Of a stretch of DNA of 36,760 nucleotides, positions 4,021 to 16,622 are shown in pieces. Source of the stretch: a virus; IMG/VR virus record IMGVR_UViG_3300002821_000001. One strand, 5' to 3'. The position numbers and the translations under genes were made by a program. How positions within the stretch are numbered: position 1 is the first letter of the stretch; each line of letters starts with the position of its first letter. Below the pieces are notes generated by a model. The model was not told where the DNA came from and did not search any database. It was given only the letters and a program-made list of their open reading frames with translations.

Positions 4021-4452
4021 ATGAGAGAAATAAAGTTTAGATTTTGGATGGGCAATTATGCTAAACCTATCTATGAATATTCTGACAATTTAATTAGATT
4101 AGAGCAAGAGAGAAATTGTCCGATACTTGCCGATTACTTAACAACCAAAAGAGATGTGATTGTCAAAGAGCAATACACAGGTCTAAAAGACAAGAATGGC
4201 AAAGAGATTTATGAAGGTGATATTTTGAGTTTTGTCTATCGTCCAACACGGGAAACAAAAGAAAATTATCGTGGTGTAATCAAGTTTGGAAATCCTAACG
4301 GCGCATATAATTGGGGTTGGCAAATTAGGTTTATTGGAACGCAACCACTTACAGCGAAAGATATTTTGTTTTGGATAGAGGACATTTATACCGATTGCGA
4401 AGTCATTGGCAACATTCACGAAAATCCTGAATTGTTAAAAGGAAACGAATAA
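4021..4452 (+). CDS. YopX-family protein
   Basis: IKFRFW start, YTGLKDKNGKEIYEGDI, and C-terminal VIGNIHENPELL are hallmark YopX motifs. Confidence 0.85.
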   Translation: MREIKFRFWMGNYAKPIYEYSDNLIRLEQERNCPILADYLTTKRDVIVKEQYTGLKDKNGKEIYEGDILSFVYRPTRETKENYRGVIKFGNPNGAYNWGWQIRFIGTQPLTAKDILFWIEDIYTDCEVIGNIHENPELLKGNE

Positions 4453-4453
4453 T

Positions 4454-4717
4454 ATGGCACGAAAGAGAAAATATATTATCTTACAATACAAAGACGCAAG
4501 AACAAAGATTTACCAAAATAAAAAGTTTGCTTATCCTAGACTTGCTAAAAACTTTTATGATACATTACAGGTTGCTGAAAGACAATCTTGCGATATGTTT
4601 GTCTTGACGATTGATGGAAAAAACGATTATTATACGCCAATCAATTTACGCATTTTAGAAGATTTACTTGGTAGTGGAAACAAGTCGCCAATTCTTTTGA
4701 AAGGTAAAAGACGATGA
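4454..4717 (+). CDS. hypothetical protein (87 aa)
   Basis: ORF abutting its neighbours. Ends in TGA and overlaps the next ATG (ATGA). Confidence 0.55.
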   Translation: MARKRKYIILQYKDARTKIYQNKKFAYPRLAKNFYDTLQVAERQSCDMFVLTIDGKNDYYTPINLRILEDLLGSGNKSPILLKGKRR

Positions 4718-5691
4718 AGATACAATTAGACGACAGAATTATTGGGAGTGATGCGTTTCTATCTTTATCACACACCGCACAATGCCTATACTTTGCTTTA
4801 TTTAGGGCAAGAGATAACGATGGTGTTGTTAATAAAACTAAAAGTGTGATGATGGCAACAAGTCGTGAAGATGGTAAAGATGTGGAGTTGTGCCAAGAAA
4901 AACACTTACAAGAGTTAATAAATGGCTCGTTCTTGATTGACTTTCGTAAAAGTGATGGTGTGGTTATTATTAAACACCATTGGTTACACACCACTTATAA
5001 AAGCGATAGATATATTCCATCGACTTATGATTGCGTAAATCGTTTGTTTGTTAAATCAAATGGCGTTTATACCGAAGATGAAACACAAGGAAAACCATAC
5101 TTGGAAAATAAATGGAAAAATAATGGAAAAAATCTGGAAGAAAATAGTTTCCCCAATCTAATCAAATCTAATCTAATTAAATCTAATATATTAAAGAATA
5201 AGAATATTGCCGATAAAAAAATCGGCGATGTGGTTGTTTTGGTGAGTGAAGATGATAAAACAACTAAAAGCGATGATAAAAAACCTAGTGATTTGTTTGC
5301 TGAACGATTTGAAATGTATTGGAAGGCGTATAACAATCATAAGGGAAGTAAAGCCAAAGCAAAACAATGGTTTATCACGCATAAAGTTAGTGAAGAAACC
5401 TTGAATAGTATGCTACAAGCGATTAAAATTGATGATGTAGCACGAGATGAAGCACAAATAATGAGTGAGTTTTACCCACAAAAACCATATGCTACTACTT
5501 GGTTAAATCAAAAGCGTTGGGAAACACTACTCGAAAACGTGCCACAAAGCCACCCACAAGGCACGAAAGGAAGTTCAAGGGAAAACATACCACCCCAAGA
5601 CCAATCGTCGCCTACAAGCCAAGCAAATGGCGAAATAGGCGATATAGAGAAACTTGTTGCCGAGTTTGAAGCGAGCAAGAAAGGAAAATAG
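4714..5691 (+). CDS. putative phage replisome organizer / replication initiator
   Basis: The N-terminal region resembles the phage replisome-organizer N-domain. The C-terminal F.RFE.YWKAYNNHKGSKAKAKQWF motif is common in phage replication proteins. There are internal iterons in the low-complexity linker. Confidence 0.5.
   Translation: MKIQLDDRIIGSDAFLSLSHTAQCLYFALFRARDNDGVVNKTKSVMMATSREDGKDVELCQEKHLQELINGSFLIDFRKSDGVVIIKHHWLHTTYKSDRYIPSTYDCVNRLFVKSNGVYTEDETQGKPYLENKWKNNGKNLEENSFPNLIKSNLIKSNILKNKNIADKKIGDVVVLVSEDDKTTKSDDKKPSDLFAERFEMYWKAYNNHKGSKAKAKQWFITHKVSEETLNSMLQAIKIDDVARDEAQIMSEFYPQKPYATTWLNQKRWETLLENVPQSHPQGTKGSSRENIPPQDQSSPTSQANGEIGDIEKLVAEFEASKKGK
5155..5226. repeat. candidate origin of replication inside the initiator gene: 15-bp iterons plus an AT-rich inverted repeat
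   Basis: Iterons aatctaatcaaatct (5155..5169) and aatctaattaaatct (5170..5184). Inverted repeat gccgat-aaaaaa-atcggc (5209..5226). AATGGAAAAA occurs twice just upstream (about 5111..5130). Confidence 0.4.
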
Positions 5692-11831: not shown

Positions 11832-12011
11832 ATGGAAGAAAAAAAGTATCGATTTGAAATTACGGAGAATGAAGCAAACATTGTGTTAGCAGCATTAAGC
11901 GAATTACCATTTAAGGTATCATCGCAACTGATTGTCAAATTACAATCACAAGCACAAACACAAAACAAAGTCGAAGTAGTCGAAAAAGAAAAGACAGCGA
12001 AAAAGTCCTAA
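11832..12011 (+). CDS. hypothetical protein (59 aa)
   Basis: AAAGGAGAA RBS before ATG 11832. The track ORF starts further upstream without an RBS. Confidence 0.55.
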   Translation: MEEKKYRFEITENEANIVLAALSELPFKVSSQLIVKLQSQAQTQNKVEVVEKEKTAKKS

Positions 12012-12121
12012 TGGAAAACGAACTCACTAGACGAGAAAAGTTATTTGTATTAGTGATATGGTTGATATCGGTATCGGTAATCGTGGCACACATTACTTTG
12101 GGTATATTGGTATTTGCCTAA
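12011..12121 (+). CDS. small single-pass membrane peptide (36 aa)
   Basis: TAATG coupling. MENELTRREKLFVLVIWLISVSVIVAHITLGILVFA has a charged N-terminus followed by one TM helix. Confidence 0.4.
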   Translation: MENELTRREKLFVLVIWLISVSVIVAHITLGILVFA

Positions 12122-12124
12122 CGA

Positions 12125-12153
12125 TTGACAATTAGATGACACGGTAGTAATAT
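12125..12153 (+). promoter_or_regulatory. candidate promoter TTGACA-17-TAATAT (a TATAAT is also present at 12151)
   Basis: Consensus -35 at 12125..12130. Two overlapping -10 options. Confidence 0.4.
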
Positions 12154-12159
12154 AATAAT

Positions 12160-12346
12160 GTGGGTTGGCGATTGTCTATTAGACAACAATAAGTCCATTG
12201 CCGAAAAGGAACAAATTGGCAGTCCCACACCAGATATGGTCTTTAAGATATGGTCTTTAAGATAATGGCAGGTAAGATAATGACTTGGCAGTTTAACCGC
12301 CGAGAACAAGGGTTGATGGGTTTGATATCCCTCGCCCTTTTCTTTT
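12160..12346 (+). ncRNA. candidate ncRNA of about 185 nt containing four 14-15-nt tandem repeats and ending in an intrinsic terminator
   Basis: No RBS-supported ORF. Repeats GATATGGTCTTTAA x2, GATAATGGCAGGTAA, GATAATGACTTGGCA (12233..12290). Terminator GGG..GGG-loop-CCC..CCC followed by TTTTCTTTT (12310..12346). Several U.G pairs work only on the + strand. Confidence 0.35.
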
Positions 12347-12370
12347 ATGATATAATGTATTTAACAAATA

Positions 12371-12390
12371 GGGTGGCAACACCCCTTTTT
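12371..12390. terminator. GC hairpin GGGTG-GCAA-CACCC with T-run (+ strand); may act bidirectionally
   Basis: Stem 12371..12375 pairs with 12380..12384, then CTTTTT. On the minus strand it follows the tRNA-like gene (UAUUUGUU tail). Confidence 0.5.
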
Positions 12391-12398
12391 ATTTATCT

Positions 12399-12472
12399 TG
12401 GTGGAGTAGATGAGAATTGAACTCATATTCTTGACACGATTTAATCACATCAAGTCGATACCTTACTACCCC
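12399..12472 (-). ncRNA. 74-nt tRNA-like RNA with alanine identity elements and tmRNA-TLD-like features (no canonical D or anticodon arm)
   Basis: RNA sequence: GGGGUAG-UAA-GGUAUCGAC-UUGAUGUGAU-UAA-AUCGUGUCAA-GAAU-AUGAG-UUCAAUU-CUCAU-CUACUCC-A-CCA. It has a 7-bp acceptor stem with G3.U70, A73, a canonical T-arm and an encoded CCA. The central 11-bp stem has three G.U pairs that are valid only on the minus strand. Confidence 0.55.
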
Positions 12473-12501: not shown

Positions 12502-12666
12502 ATACCCCCCCCTATGTCTAGAAATGTGAAATATCGTTTATTTTTAGGCACATTTTTATCACACATCGTTTTTTATTATACCAAAATAAATAAAAAAAAT
12601 ATGGGATATCTGGGGCTTGGGCGATTTTCACATACAATTTTGTGTCGGCACTCTTGTCAAGTAAAA
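12502..12666. repeat. non-coding element copy A (homologous to 35004..35165)
   Basis: Shared blocks at equal spacing: ATAC(7-8)TAT, a 19-bp identical stretch aaaaaaatatgggatatct (12593..12611 and 35093..35111), atacaatttt, and ttgtcaagtaaaa. Confidence 0.8.
12575..12583 (-). promoter_or_regulatory. extended -10 promoter TGgTATAAT on the minus strand, reading toward the tRNA-like gene
   Basis: Same TGGTATAATAA motif as the + strand promoters at 8734, 16564 and 32701. A/T-rich UP-like tract upstream. About 95 nt upstream of the tRNA-like 5' end. Confidence 0.45.
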
Positions 12667-12744
12667 GACATTTACAAGCACCCTAATAATGGGCTTCAAT
12701 CGTCTTTTTAATTGGCTTGATTGATTGTGATTGATTGCTTTCAT
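12628..12744 (-). CDS. basic micro-ORF A (38 aa)
   Basis: GAGGTG RBS 6 nt before the ATG. MKAINHNQSSQLKRRLKPIIRVLVNVFYLTRVPTQNCM. Stops at the same aligned position as micro-ORF B. Confidence 0.4.
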   Translation of the reverse strand: MKAINHNQSSQLKRRLKPIIRVLVNVFYLTRVPTQNCM

Positions 12745-12800: not shown

Positions 12801-12820
12801 TTAGGACAAATTAGGACAAA
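12801..12820. promoter_or_regulatory. tandem TTAGGACAAA x2, operator-like, abutting the -35 of the 12826 promoter
   Basis: Perfect 10-bp direct repeat located between divergent transcription units. TAGGACAA also lies within the 8715 promoter spacer. Confidence 0.4.
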
Positions 12821-12825
12821 TGCTA

Positions 12826-12853
12826 TTGACATCTAAAAAATGGCAATTATAAT
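12826..12853 (+). promoter_or_regulatory. near-consensus promoter TTGACA-16-TATAAT
   Basis: -35 at 12826..12831, -10 at 12848..12853. Confidence 0.7.
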
Positions 12854-12908
12854 TAGTGGTGTCTTATGGCGTTAGGCAAGAGCCAAATCGCCGCTAGTTC
12901 TTTGAAAA

Positions 12909-12968
12909 CTTAACAACGTATCAGCAAGAAGCCATTGAAAAAGACGCTCTATTTACTGATACGTTAAG
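12909..12968 (+). promoter_or_regulatory. long 5'-UTR hairpin (13 bp with a 3-nt bulge, 31-nt loop)
   Basis: cttaaCAAcgtatcag (12909..12924) pairs with ctgatacgttaag (12956..12968). Confidence 0.45.
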
Positions 12969-12969
12969 C

Positions 12970-12993
12970 ATTGACGCTTATATGTTCCCCCGC
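12970..12993. repeat. left arm of a perfect 24-bp inverted repeat (partner 13202..13225); also contains the anti-SD TTCCCC
   Basis: attgacgcttatatgttcccccgc is the exact reverse complement of 13202..13225. TTCCCC (12985..12990) pairs with GGGGAA (12998..13003), which is the SD of the ORF. Confidence 0.9.
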
Positions 12994-13005
12994 GAAAGGG
13001 GAAAT

Positions 13006-13194
13006 ATGGCAACATTTAACAATCGTTATAAAGTATACGTGGATGGCTCAATTTTTAGAGCATATTCAAGATTAGACATAGCGAAAATAATCAAACAGGC
13101 ACACGATAACAACGCCAAAAACATAAGTGTAAAAGATTTACAAAACAACCGATTTATTTATAAATGGCAAAGTAAAACATTACTAAACAAATAA
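13006..13194 (+). CDS. hypothetical protein (62 aa) bracketed by the 24-bp inverted repeat
   Basis: AAAGGGGAAAT RBS before ATG 13006. The upstream ATG at 12982 has no RBS. Confidence 0.55.
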   Translation: MATFNNRYKVYVDGSIFRAYSRLDIAKIIKQAHDNNAKNISVKDLQNNRFIYKWQSKTLLNK

Positions 13195-13201
13195 AACAAA
13201 A

Positions 13202-13225
13202 GCGGGGGAACATATAAGCGTCAAT
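13202..13225. repeat. right arm of the perfect 24-bp inverted repeat
   Basis: gcgggggaacatataagcgtcaat, beginning 8 nt after the ORF stop. Confidence 0.9.
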
Positions 13226-13253
13226 AATATAAATAGAAAGGAGGCAAAATTAT

Positions 13254-13502
13254 ATGACAAAAGAACAGCACGAAAAGCGTATCATTGATAACGCAACGCG
13301 TTACGGATGGCAATTAGAAAAGCAAGAAACAGCACGACAAATAAACGCGCTTGTCGAATTGCTAGGAATGAACGAGATTGAAGAGGAACAATTCGCGAAG
13401 CGTATTTACGAAGCAATCAAAATAAGATTTTTAGAAATGATTAAGCAAAGCAAACACGATTATATGCTAATTAGTGAAAACGCCAAAGCGGCGACAAAAT
13501 AA
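13254..13502 (+). CDS. hypothetical protein (82 aa)
   Basis: AAAGGAGG RBS. Confidence 0.6.
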   Translation: MTKEQHEKRIIDNATRYGWQLEKQETARQINALVELLGMNEIEEEQFAKRIYEAIKIRFLEMIKQSKHDYMLISENAKAATK

Positions 13503-13514
13503 GGGGGGTAAATT

Positions 13515-13673
13515 ATGAAAGATTTTAGCAAGTATGAAATGGGGCGCGTGCGTGTTAAATTAGATGCTGAACACGCGGAAAGAGTAAGGGCGCGCGCATT
13601 GAAGCAACGGCGCAAACTACAGGATCAGTTAGCGTATGAGTTACAAGAATATGAACGTGGTATAAATTTATGA
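13515..13673 (+). CDS. hypothetical small basic protein (52 aa)
   Basis: AAGGGGGG RBS. Below the track cutoff. Confidence 0.5.
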   Translation: MKDFSKYEMGRVRVKLDAEHAERVRARALKQRRKLQDQLAYELQEYERGINL

Positions 13674-13834
13674 CGATTAAACAATCTCGAGCAATCTATT
13701 ATAAAAAATATAACAATCTTTATAAGATTGCACGCGAAAAAAACATTAAAAAAATAGGGCACGCTTTATGGCAACTTCCAAACGGTGAGCGAATTCACGG
13801 TGTTGAAAACGCAATAAAGAAAGCGCAACAATAA
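13670..13834 (+). CDS. hypothetical small basic protein (54 aa)
   Basis: ATGA overlap with the previous ORF. Followed by a terminator. Confidence 0.45.
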   Translation: MTIKQSRAIYYKKYNNLYKIAREKNIKKIGHALWQLPNGERIHGVENAIKKAQQ

Positions 13835-13855: not shown

Positions 13856-13882
13856 GCGGGGCTTAAAAACCCCGCTTTTTTT
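13856..13882 (+). terminator. rho-independent terminator
   Basis: GCGGGG-cttaaaaa-CCCCGC followed by T7. The IS is inserted at the end of the T-tract. Confidence 0.8.
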
Positions 13883-13883
13883 A

Positions 13884-15395
13884 GACTCTGTAAGATTAAA
13901 GGTGGAAAAAGGTGGAATGAGTCGTCCACCCCATCAAAACTGTAAGATTTAAAGTGGGGAGCTATGATAGAGAATATCATGGCTCTTTTCTATTGGGTTT
14001 GTTGTTGGAAGAAATAAGCAAAGCGCGTTTTCTAAACCTTTCGAAATTGTGATAACCATAGGCAGCTTTAATGATAGTTTTGAGGTGATTGTTCGCACCT
14101 TCGGCGATGGAGTTAGTGTAGCGACGATGGCCTTGAGAACGGGCGAGACCATTAGCGATTTCAAATCGCCATTTGTGGTAAGTACGACCGACAGAAACGA
14201 GAAGCTCGTTGCCTGAATCAATCAATCGTTTCGAGATGCGAATGATAAAATTAACCGCATCTTCATAATGATGATATGAATCGTATTTATAGAGTTCTTG
14301 GAGAATGTTGTAACCATTCCAAAGCGGTTCACTAATCTTGATGCATTTGAAGACCATGTCGTCATAGTGAACGATCTCTCCGGTGCGTTTATAGGTATAG
14401 AACTTGTCGGGAAGTTTGCTGTAACGACATAGAAATAGCTTCCAATGTGACTTCATGAAATTGTAGATGTTGGTTCCCTTACCAGCGACGTTGTTCATCG
14501 CCCTGGTTCTTAGACGATTGACAGCGTTGGTCAACTGAGTGATGACGTGGAACCAATCGATGACATGCATGGCTTTGGGAAAGTACTGACGGCAGACGGT
14601 GTCATAGGCCTCATACATATCGGAAATGAACACCTTGACGGTTTCCCTCTCTACGAGAGGGATAGAAACGAAATATTCGCGAAGATAGGCCATTTGACGG
14701 TTTCTAAGAATATCGATGATTTCTCCATTGTCGAAGTTGGTTAAAACACAGACATACTTTTGATCAAGCTCATTGCTGAATTTGATTTCATCGACACATA
14801 ACACCCGGCTTAAATAAAGGCGCGGCACATATTTGACATTTTGATCGAACAATTCGATGGTATGCGTTTTGGAAAGATGATACTTACTAGCGATTTGCGT
14901 AAACGTCAATTTCCCCATGAAGTCGTTTACGATTAAATGTCGTTGCAAGTCGGAAATGTGAGATCGTGGAGTGATGCCTCGAAGCGGTGGCGTATAAGTC
15001 GCATGGCAGTCATTGCATTTGAACCGAACTTTCCTGACTCTGAGAATGTCTTGAAGATGATCGTTTTCCGAACAATTAATCGTGACGTAGAAGTAGTTGT
15101 TAACGTAAGCCGATTGTGATTGACATCGGGGACATTTTCGCTGGTCAGTTCGTTGTTCAACTTCATAAACGAATCCGAAATCTGTTTTTATTGGCTCGAA
15201 AGGTACATTGGAGAAATTGTCCGGGTCTAAACCGAACCTTGATAAAAATATGTTAAAATCCATAGTGTCTCCCCTATCTTTTGAATCGTTGACAATTCAA
15301 TTATAGAGGAGACCTTTATATATATAGAAACCATCAAAACTGTAAAGTTTAAGGTGGAGTGATATTTCCTTGTCCACCTTTGTTCTTACAGAACC
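13884..15395 (-). mobile_element. ISL3-family insertion sequence (1512 bp) with imperfect terminal inverted repeats and an 8-bp target duplication TTTTTTTA
   Basis: IRL is GACTCTGTAAGATTAAAGGTGGA. IRR (reverse complement) is GGTTCTGTAAGAACAAAGGTGGA. TTTTTTTA flanks both ends (13876..13883 and 15396..15403). There are extra subterminal copies of the CTGTAAGnnTTAAAGTGG motif at 13939 and 15339. Confidence 0.8.
13977..15263 (-). CDS. ISL3-family DDE transposase
   Basis: N-terminal zinc finger CPRCQS...C..C. LCVDEIKF, ISDMYEAY and IDWFHV motifs. C-terminal NSIAEGANNHLKTIIKAAYGYHNFERFRKRAL, characteristic of ISL3 transposases. Confidence 0.9.
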   Translation of the reverse strand: MDFNIFLSRFGLDPDNFSNVPFEPIKTDFGFVYEVEQRTDQRKCPRCQSQSAYVNNYFYVTINCSENDHLQDILRVRKVRFKCNDCHATYTPPLRGITPRSHISDLQRHLIVNDFMGKLTFTQIASKYHLSKTHTIELFDQNVKYVPRLYLSRVLCVDEIKFSNELDQKYVCVLTNFDNGEIIDILRNRQMAYLREYFVSIPLVERETVKVFISDMYEAYDTVCRQYFPKAMHVIDWFHVITQLTNAVNRLRTRAMNNVAGKGTNIYNFMKSHWKLFLCRYSKLPDKFYTYKRTGEIVHYDDMVFKCIKISEPLWNGYNILQELYKYDSYHHYEDAVNFIIRISKRLIDSGNELLVSVGRTYHKWRFEIANGLARSQGHRRYTNSIAEGANNHLKTIIKAAYGYHNFERFRKRALLISSNNKPNRKEP

Positions 15396-15403
15396 TTTTT
15401 TTA

Positions 15404-16542
15404 TTGGCTTGATAATCACAAACATTGAAAATAACGGGGTATAATAACACTAGGCGACATGCTTTCGTGGCTTGTAGGGGCGTTTATGCGCTTTATTTTT
15501 AAGCAAGACCAAGCCAAAAAGACGAAAAACAAAATGGATCAGCAAAAAAGCACGTTAGCGCCATTTTAAGACGATCGGATAAATAAACATCATTTAATCA
15601 TTTAATCATTTAACGAATTACTTTTTTACAACGATATAATCTTTTATACCGTTTTTTTGTCGTGTCTTAAGTCTTTAAGTCTTTAAGTCTTTTAGTATCA
15701 TTGTTTTAATTCTTATTTAGATTGATTGTATATCTATTATCTTGTTTTAATCTAAATATTACTAATGATTTATTGCTTATCATTTATCCTTTTTAGATTA
15801 ACATCACTTCTTTAATTCTTAATACTTAAGTATTTAAGTCTTAAGTCTTAACGAATTACTACAAGAATAATAATTTAATAACTATGTATTGTATGTTAAG
15901 GCTTGCCATTGACCGATTAGTCAATCGCAGAATTGGTAGATGATGAATAAATAAAAGTAAAAGCGTTTTTTAATGGTGCTGATTAGTGTAATGATTAGTG
16001 TAATTGTTTAATGATGTGATGAATGATTAAAGTATTGAAGTATTAAAGATAAGTATTAAAGATAATTAAAAAGTGATTTAACGTCGTGTGCTGAATGTGC
16101 TAACGATAAAATGAATGGCTAATTGAAGGCGTGAATGGCTAATTGAAGGCGTGAATGACTAATCGCAACATCGTAAACGACACTAACTAATATCATAAAC
16201 AACAATGTAAACATAAATACACTGATATATTAAGTAACAACATAAAGACATTCGCTAATCATCACGCGCGCCAAACACTCGACAATCACACAATCAATCA
16301 TCAATAACAGGCATATATGCTTATTTAGCGTTTTAAGGCACATTAGACAAGAGTTATGTATCGGCATAGTAAACATACCTTGAAATCGTGAACGTTTATG
16401 TATGCTATGTCTATGCGTCATATATGACTATTTACGATGACGGTGGGCGGTATCAACTTTTATGGTTGTCCACATAATGGGGTGGCAGCCCCCTTGACTA
16501 TTAGTAGAATTGATGACCCAAACTATACGAAGGAAAGGTAGG
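15404..16542. repeat. ORF-free, repeat-dense region upstream of terL (candidate packaging-recognition site and/or origin)
   Basis: Repeat families seen: CATTTAAT x3 (15591..15614); GTCTT(T)AA x4 (15664..15695); palindrome AATACTTAAGTATT (15821..15834); TTAACGAATTACT at 15610 and 15848; GATTAGTGTAAT x2 (about 15981..16006); AAGTATTAAAGATA x2 (about 16048..16075); TGAATGnCTAA x4, including 20-bp units x2.5 (16092..16164). Confidence 0.6.
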
Positions 16543-16572
16543 TTGAGAAAGATAAAGGTAACGTGGTATAAT
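16543..16572 (+). promoter_or_regulatory. promoter TTGAGA-18-TGgTATAAT upstream of terL
   Basis: -35 at 16543..16548. Extended -10 at 16564..16572. Confidence 0.5.
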
Positions 16573-16622
16573 AAATAATGAGAAAAAAGGGAAGATGGAA
16601 AGAAAAGAGGGAATGAAAGATA

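Follow-up and report, generated by a model that had tools for sequence, protein, structure and literature searches.

Single-nucleotide mapping of RNase III sites in Bacillus subtilis has shown that they are mostly long-range intramolecular duplexes of 10-36 base pairs (bp), with strands up to 505 nucleotides (nt) apart; such substrates include the priA, yqeU, atpA and asnB mRNAs (PMC11780869). In Staphylococcus aureus, a UCCCC motif in the 3' untranslated region of icaR pairs with the Shine-Dalgarno (SD) sequence, creating an RNase III substrate (PMC3868564). The present work deals with a perfect 24-bp inverted repeat that brackets an open reading frame (ORF) of 62 amino acids (aa), ORF62, in the IMG/VR record IMGVR_UViG_3300002821_000001. 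The window analysed is the entire metagenomic contig, 36,760 bp long, which is a phage genome with 35% GC. The bracket is read here as a cis-acting mRNA helix around one cistron, which would act as an RNase III site and as a control of translation initiation. Our confidence in this reading is evenly balanced; the role in RNA, which is unproven, is proposed from thermodynamic prediction and from analogy with the mapped Firmicute substrates.

The left arm of the repeat (12970-12993, ATTGACGCTTATATGTTCCCCCGC) is the exact reverse complement of the right arm (13202-13225), with 24 of 24 nt matching and 208 nt between the arms. All 24 pairs are of the Watson-Crick type, with neither G-U pairs nor bulges. 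When up to three mismatches are allowed, matches to the arm in the window are limited to these two sites, and none appeared in 100 dinucleotide-preserving shuffles. Perfect inverted repeats of at least 14 nt with loops of 30-800 nt were sought in the window and in the phages SPP1 (44 kb) and phismq86 (34 kb). The 24-nt pair is the longest of the window, the runner-up with such a loop measuring 14 nt, and neither of the two phages contains any repeat of this class. The repeat is a real feature, far beyond chance. Both its exactness and the small probability of a chance origin had been claimed in a previous, sequence-only reading of this DNA, and both are borne out. The arms occupy the non-coding spacers around ORF62 (13006-13194), the left one ending 12 nt ahead of the ATG, as that reading had it, and the right one beginning 7 nt past the stop codon rather than 8. 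All parts of the operon described here, from promoter to terminator, are given on the plus strand.

Both arms fall within one predicted transcription unit, which extends from a promoter at 12826 to a stem-loop at 13856. The promoter (12826-12853; TTGACA, 16 nt, TATAAT) is of the sigma-A/sigma-70 type and agrees with the consensus at 12 of 12 positions, so that its earlier description as near-consensus was right in position and too modest in quality. Transcription is predicted to start near 12860, and the promoter is conserved in two related genomes, L004 and L009. The stem-loop GCGGGGCTTAAAAACCCCGC, followed by a T run (13856-13883), is read as the operon terminator; the terminator scan lists the stem for the minus strand alone, and its assignment to the plus strand comes from the sequence itself. 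The same scan found no plus-strand terminator-like site between the promoter and this stem-loop. Two tandem 10-bp direct repeats (TTAGGACAAA, twice, 12801-12820) lie directly upstream of the -35 hexamer and are candidate regulator sites.

By several signs ORF62 looks like a genuine gene. The SD ahead of it, GAAAGGGGAAAT, is the one used by many genes of the phage, and its codon log-odds are positive in the annotated frame only (0.20, versus -0.43 to -0.98 in the other five). The product is hydrophilic with a predicted soluble fold, and AlphaFold2, run on the single sequence without an alignment, yielded a compact beta-beta-alpha-beta-beta model with a pLDDT of 84. Gene callers place the start at an ATG at 12982, inside the left arm, which gives 70 aa; no SD is present at that ATG. 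The protein is an orphan. A word-indexed search of 5.8 billion proteins returned only its own 70-aa gene call, and a full HMMER search of 1.84 billion representatives produced nothing credible, the long multi-stretch matches obtained being judged spurious. There was no tblastn match in 50,697 phage records, no Pfam or PHROGs family match, and no fold match in the PDB.

With respect to RNA folding, the 24-bp duplex has a predicted energy of -44.3 kcal/mol. In the ensemble of a 670-nt transcript its pairs have probabilities of 0.84-1.0, forbidding the helix costs 27.5 kcal/mol, and the fold of the region has a z score of -7.5. The left arm has a second predicted partner, because its 3' half (12981-12991) doubles as the anti-SD and anti-AUG strand of a local hairpin (12981-13008, -11.1 kcal/mol) in which it pairs with 12998-13008. 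This pairing therefore covers both the SD (GGGG, 12998-13001) and the AUG (13006-13008). The sequence-only reading had described its inner part, in which TTCCCC (12985-12990) faces GGGGAA (12998-13003) across the loop CGCGAAA; these elements are as described, and the predicted hairpin is larger. The right arm carries an SD-like GGGGGAA which, according to the predicted energies, out-competes the true SD for the left arm.

Folding of the growing chain gives the predicted order of these events. The local hairpin over SD and AUG prevails until about 13205, and the switch is complete from 13215; the mean unpaired probability of the SD is 0.44 until 13205, 0.70 at 13210 and 0.82 from 13215. Among the 34 genes compared, local folding around the start is most negative for ORF62 (-16.2 kcal/mol, versus 0 to -11.4). 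TTCCCC occurs in three copies on this strand in 36.7 kb, one of them 7 nt upstream of the ORF62 SD. When an RNase III cut at the centre of the helix is modelled, the resulting mini-mRNA is 234 nt long, its ends are clamped by 12 bp and its SD is unpaired. The region 12860-13260 gave no hit at the gathering thresholds of Rfam 15, and in E-value mode only STnc480 appeared, at 27.9 bits, which is chance level (gathering threshold 72).

These predictions suggest the following course of events. Transcription from the 12826-12853 promoter would yield a polycistronic mRNA with ORF62, ORF82, ORF52 and ORF54. During transcription of ORF62, the left arm would fold with its 3' half over the SD and AUG of this gene and exclude ribosomes. 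Once it emerges, the right arm would take the whole left arm into the 24-bp helix, freeing SD and AUG and enclosing the ORF62 cistron in a 208-nt loop. A helix of this kind is a classic substrate of RNase III, and its cleavage would remove the structured 5' leader and release a mini-mRNA of about 230 nt whose ends would be clamped by the remaining 12 or so GC-rich pairs, so that the ribosome site would stay open and the ends be protected. The same cleavage would give the ORF82-ORF54 message a new 5' end just before the strong SD of ORF82. Expression and stability of the accessory gene would thereby be uncoupled from the rest of the operon. The analysis itself shows the repeat, the gene-like ORF, the folds predicted for the transcript with their order, and the variable context among strains; the existence of the transcript, formation of the helix in vivo, its cleavage by RNase III and the direction in which expression would change are inferred. 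In its most specific form, which we consider unlikely and put forward tentatively, the scheme describes a 'self-licensing' cistron: the upstream anti-SD strand would keep the ribosome site shut until an SD-mimicking anti-anti-SD after the cistron's own stop codon has been transcribed and opens it, and RNase III would then excise the end-clamped mini-mRNA.

The locus can be compared with the systems it resembles. Like the long-range substrates of B. subtilis, it has a duplex length (24 bp) and a strand spacing (208 nt) that fall mid-way inside the mapped ranges, which makes the earlier proposal of an RNase III substrate physically consistent as a prediction. Unlike them, the ORF62 duplex is perfect, brackets one cistron of a phage operon, and has one strand that doubles as an anti-SD. 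In rRNA operons, RNase III processing stems bracket the 16S and 23S rRNA; the ORF62 stem likewise encloses a complete functional unit that cleavage would excise. The likeness to icaR includes a C-rich anti-SD and a G-rich SD, long-distance pairing across the ORF, an RNase III substrate (here a predicted one) and a Firmicute host (a probable one in this case). However, the anti-SD of icaR lies downstream and is repressive. Here it lies upstream, and 13202-13225 pairs with it and is predicted to open the SD. Thus, of the traits of icaR, the C-rich motif on the mRNA's own SD is found, although non-specifically by shuffle and swap, whereas a downstream repressive anti-SD is not.

The hok mRNA of type I toxin-antitoxin systems possesses metastable 5' hairpins and a tac/fbi fold-back, and its closure inactivates the mRNA until 3' trimming. 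The toxin that it encodes is hydrophobic, and the system includes an antisense RNA. ORF62 would share with hok three competing elements, a difference between the nascent and the full-length structure, and a 5'-3' closure around the reading frame. It differs in that its product is hydrophilic and in that no antisense partner was identified, antisense promoter-like matches being at chance level. Activation by an anti-antisense strand is known from DsrA/RprA-rpoS and RNAIII-hla, and from synthetic cis-repressed/trans-activated riboregulators and toehold switches. As in these, an upstream strand would hide SD and AUG until a second segment invades from an unpaired extension (12970-12980 here) and opens the site. 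In contrast to them, the activator of ORF62 would be encoded in cis, immediately past the stop codon of its own cistron, so that activation would be automatic on completed transcription and not dependent on a signal. Long-range RNase III duplexes and 5'-3' anti-SD control are known themes, and this arrangement is probably a variant of them.

The bracketed ORF lies in a part of the operon that varies among strains. Relatives were recovered via protein clusters. Three full assemblies from different samples (the window, L001 and L002) are 100% identical and show one orientation. In L004 and L009 the promoter and ORF52 are retained at 92-96% identity and 12888-13495 is missing, the promoter running directly into ORF52. 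L007 and L008 carry at this site a different ORF of 71 aa, with the SD region directly duplicated on its flanks and no bracket repeat; the ORF of L007 is unrelated to ORF62. The ORF62/ORF82 form is carried by L006 and L010. Since the relatives lack 12888-13495 or hold another ORF, the bracketed ORF belongs to a 608-bp, two-gene, strain-variable insertion in the operon leader (12888-13495). When ORF62, ORF82 and ORF52 were used as queries in IMG/VR and the JGI metagenomes, no related locus beyond L004 was found.

Within the insertion lie a leader hairpin, ORF62 with its bracket, and ORF82. Its bounds are formed by an 8-bp inverted repeat, TCGCCGCT (12888-12895) and AGCGGCGA (13487-13494), read directly from the sequence, and it is flanked by GCCAAA direct repeats. 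The inverted repeats are nested, the 8-bp one outside and the 24-bp one inside, in addition to the leader hairpin. This hairpin (12915-12965) has a 25-nt loop and a stem of 13 bp, the length earlier described; its arms lie at 12915-12927 and 12953-12965 and include one mismatch, the previous limits having been 12909 and 12968. ORF82 (13254-13502), the second gene of the insertion, has a strong SD, AAAGGAGG, 11 nt past the right arm, and its relatives are limited to the same phage group (90% identity). ORF52 (13515-13673) is kept in every recovered relative that spans the locus, and with ORF54 (13670-13834), which has a weak Arc-like match, it completes the operon.

The partial variant L006 differs from the window by one mismatch in 13039-13282 (244 nt) and by 34 differences in 13283-13673 (8.7%). 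This sharp mosaic boundary indicates, from the comparison of the two sequences, a recent recombination within the 5' end of ORF82; it does not coincide with the repeat. L006 contains the right arm, identical in 24 of 24 nt and in the same orientation, without the left arm. As that arm lies inside the near-identical segment, it carries no covariation information.

Several observations weigh against a selected function in RNA. Perfect 24/24 pairing is equally expected from a recent inverted duplication at the DNA level. The cassette is known in one phage lineage only, which provides neither independent evolutionary sampling nor covariation, and the relatives with no insert (L004, L009) or with another ORF (L007, L008) do without the bracket. 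With respect to the switch, two other SD regions of the phage, placed at the same position, pair with the left arm at least equally well, and 7% of composition-preserving arm shuffles equal the native local pairing energy. The local pairing is largely that of a C-run on a G-run and is non-specific; therefore the switch is physically predicted and not statistically demonstrated. The RNA switch suggested in the sequence-only reading is in this sense half upheld: the folding order fits it, with SD and AUG closed until about 13210-13215 and open thereafter, while its anti-SD component lacks specificity.

Because the repeat is perfect and evolutionarily shallow, the main rival is a recent neutral event, which we regard as rather unlikely. 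An unselected template-switch or snap-back replication error would have made the 24-bp inverted duplication or turned an imperfect older repeat into a perfect one, and the RNA stem, like any cutting by RNase III, would be a side effect. Such an origin would account for complementarity that is perfect, without G-U pairs or bulges. The confinement of the cassette to one lineage, in a segment near-identical to that of L006 (1/244 nt) and thus possibly young, agrees with it, as do the statistically unremarkable local anti-SD hairpin and the relatives that function without the repeat. However, the arms stand exactly in two short spacers, leaving intact the SD, start and stop of ORF62 and the SD of the next gene, and the repeat holds the sole C-run near an SD in the phage. 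Besides, a 24-bp duplex in a highly expressed leader would have strong effects and should be purged if harmful.

The remaining alternatives place the function of the arms in DNA. The sequence-only reading had proposed an inverton or a cassette resembling a miniature inverted-repeat transposable element (MITE), and both are disfavoured by the single copy, the lack of a target-site duplication, the single orientation, an indel that spans 12888-13495, and the fact that no invertase or integrase was found. The inverton, which we consider improbable, would work by recombination between the arms that flips 12994-13201 and so switches ORF62 relative to the fixed promoter. The G segment of phage Mu and the C segment of P1 are invertons, and the present locus shares with them identical inverted repeats flanking a short DNA segment. 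With identical 24-bp arms spaced 208 bp apart, the locus qualifies as a candidate under the definition that inverton finders apply; for viral genomes from metagenomes, invertons are as yet proposals (PMC13501310). Repeated recombination would maintain the perfect identity of the arms, and the phage encodes YqaJ and RecT recombination proteins, whose action on such short homologies is conjecture. An invertase is usually encoded near the repeats on which it acts; in contrast to the known cases, no such gene was found here, and the repeats enclose a whole gene with its SD, whereas what is flipped in known invertons is usually a promoter or a gene segment. No serine or tyrosine recombinase was detected in the 33 ORFs scanned, which include YqaJ, RecT, RusA and a DDE transposase of the ISL3 family; a host enzyme is possible. 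All assemblies, together with L006, have one orientation, and the flipped junction (47 nt) is absent from the metagenome contig collection. Moreover, the flip would create no new promoter, terminator or credible ORF, an antisense ORF of 40 aa starting with TTG and having no SD.

It is very improbable that the arms are paired DNA operators, inverted and 232 bp apart, by which a phage or host protein loops the DNA around ORF62. A pair of identical 24-bp sites in regulatory DNA, a short way past a strong promoter, would suit this function, and small proteins of the operon might bind DNA, as the weak Arc-like match of ORF54 suggests. However, the internal symmetry usual for operators, whether dyad or repeat, is missing from the arm, which is also unlike the two TTAGGACAAA repeats ahead of the promoter. 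Operators rarely need 24/24 identity, and the site is absent from relatives with the same promoter and downstream genes.

Finally, a MITE-like or ultra-small mobile cassette of 256 bp, carrying ORF62 between 24-bp terminal inverted repeats, is scarcely probable and largely refuted: although the repeats surround a small ORF, the locus is a strain-variable hotspot adjoining an ISL3 insertion, and mycobacteriophage MPME elements are similarly tiny, the window has a single copy of the cassette, IMG/VR lacks the 24-mer, none of 185,579 species genomes contains the 20-nt core of the arm, the BLASTN search that had been advised for further cassette copies found none in phages or plasmids, the flanks (TTAAGC and AATATA) show no target-site duplication, the empty sites of L004 and L009 lack 12888-13495 and not 12970-13225, the segment near-identical to L006 continues past the right arm to about 13282, and ORF62 has no transposase-like match.

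Other classes of element were considered and rejected. A retron non-coding RNA does not agree with the proteins scanned, which contain no reverse transcriptase domain, the downstream ORFs having 82, 52 and 54 aa. An integron cassette was discarded since such a cassette has an attC at its 3' end, whereas here inverted repeats stand on both sides of the ORF. A terminator or attenuator was discarded as well, there being no U-run after the local hairpin or the long stem. A ribozyme reading was also rejected.

The window encodes a YqaJ exonuclease, RecT, YopX, a DNA methylase, RusA, a large terminase, an SPP1-type portal and a capsid protein. Pfam and PHROG scans of the 33 ORFs found no site-specific recombinase or reverse transcriptase among its proteins. 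No cultured phage is close, there being no DNA match and a best identity of 31% for the large terminase subunit. Downstream of the operon lies an ISL3-family insertion sequence of 1511 bp (13884-15394), with a 428-aa transposase on the minus strand. It sits in the T-run of the operon terminator with the target duplication (C)TTTTTTTA and is absent from L004, L007 and L009. Its closest transposases (79-89% identity) belong to metagenome-assembled genomes of Izemoplasmatales and uncultured Bacilli; an uncultured bacterium of the Bacilli or Izemoplasmatales is therefore the probable host. Bacteria of these groups carry RNase III.

On the other side of the promoter, a divergent small gene occupies 12518-12744 of the minus strand, with a good SD (GAGGTGAT); it consists of two ORFs of 38 and 39 aa in the window and of a single 75-aa ORF in L004. 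Tandem 10-bp direct repeats (TGATTGATTG, twice, 12718-12737) at the start of this gene are candidate regulator sites. An 18-nt inverted repeat (12701-12718 and 12929-12946, 89% complementary) joins the coding start region of the minus-strand gene and the loop of the plus-strand leader hairpin; both RNAs would therefore carry a nearly identical 18-nt motif.

A minus-strand unit ends, just before a bidirectional terminator (12370-12385), in a tRNA-like element of about 74 nt (12399-12472, minus strand) that is identical in L004. It has a 7-bp acceptor stem with a G3-U70 pair, a T-arm (ATGAG/TTCAATT/CTCAT) and an encoded ACCA end. A D-arm is lacking, and the place of the anticodon arm is taken by a hairpin of 11 bp with a loop of 3 nt. 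It scores 39.1 bits (E = 1e-13) against the Rfam transfer-messenger RNA model, below the gathering threshold of 47, with model positions 1-374 matched within 74 nt, and 29.3 bits against the tRNA model (gathering threshold 29); ARAGORN made no call. Further on, a promoter-like site (12125-12153) lies behind a strongly hydrophobic ORF of 36 aa (MENELTRREKLFVLVIWLISVSVIVAHITLGILVFA, 12011-12121), and the short unit after that site ends at the terminator (12371-12384). Positions 12030-12391 are exchanged for about 60 nt in L004, which truncates the 36-aa ORF there. The region 12011-12391 may be a type I toxin-like or small RNA module.

Two further regions of the window are rich in repeats or symmetric. 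About 1.2 kb of non-coding, repeat-rich DNA (15400-16620) lies directly upstream of the large terminase gene; its tandem repeats include GTCTTTAAGTC... and 2.5 copies of AATGGCTAATTGAAGGCGTG, and no small terminase ORF is recognisable. This region may hold packaging or replication signals. A perfect, AT-rich inverted repeat of 16 nt (ATTTAATTAGATTAGA, 4088-4103 and 5167-5182), with 1063 nt between its arms, spans an 87-aa gene (4454-4717) and parts of its neighbours.

That long-range mRNA duplexes form the main class of RNase III target in Firmicutes is a recent insight, and a purpose is clear for few of them. If the ORF62 bracket were merely a recent inverted duplication, its interest would be limited to how such stems arise. 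If the reading as a cis-acting RNA element is true, the locus would be an unusually clean natural case, with a perfect 24-bp stem, one cistron and a competitor hairpin over the ribosome site, and it might offer a compact part for the design of synthetic operons. The self-licensing form would, in addition, make of the bracket a portable expression module, by which a new gene placed in the leader of an existing operon acquires its own translation timing and stability. The locus of ORF62 holds different small genes, or none, in related strains, and an RNA function of the bracket could reveal by what means phages keep accessory genes of recent acquisition insulated inside the operons that receive them.

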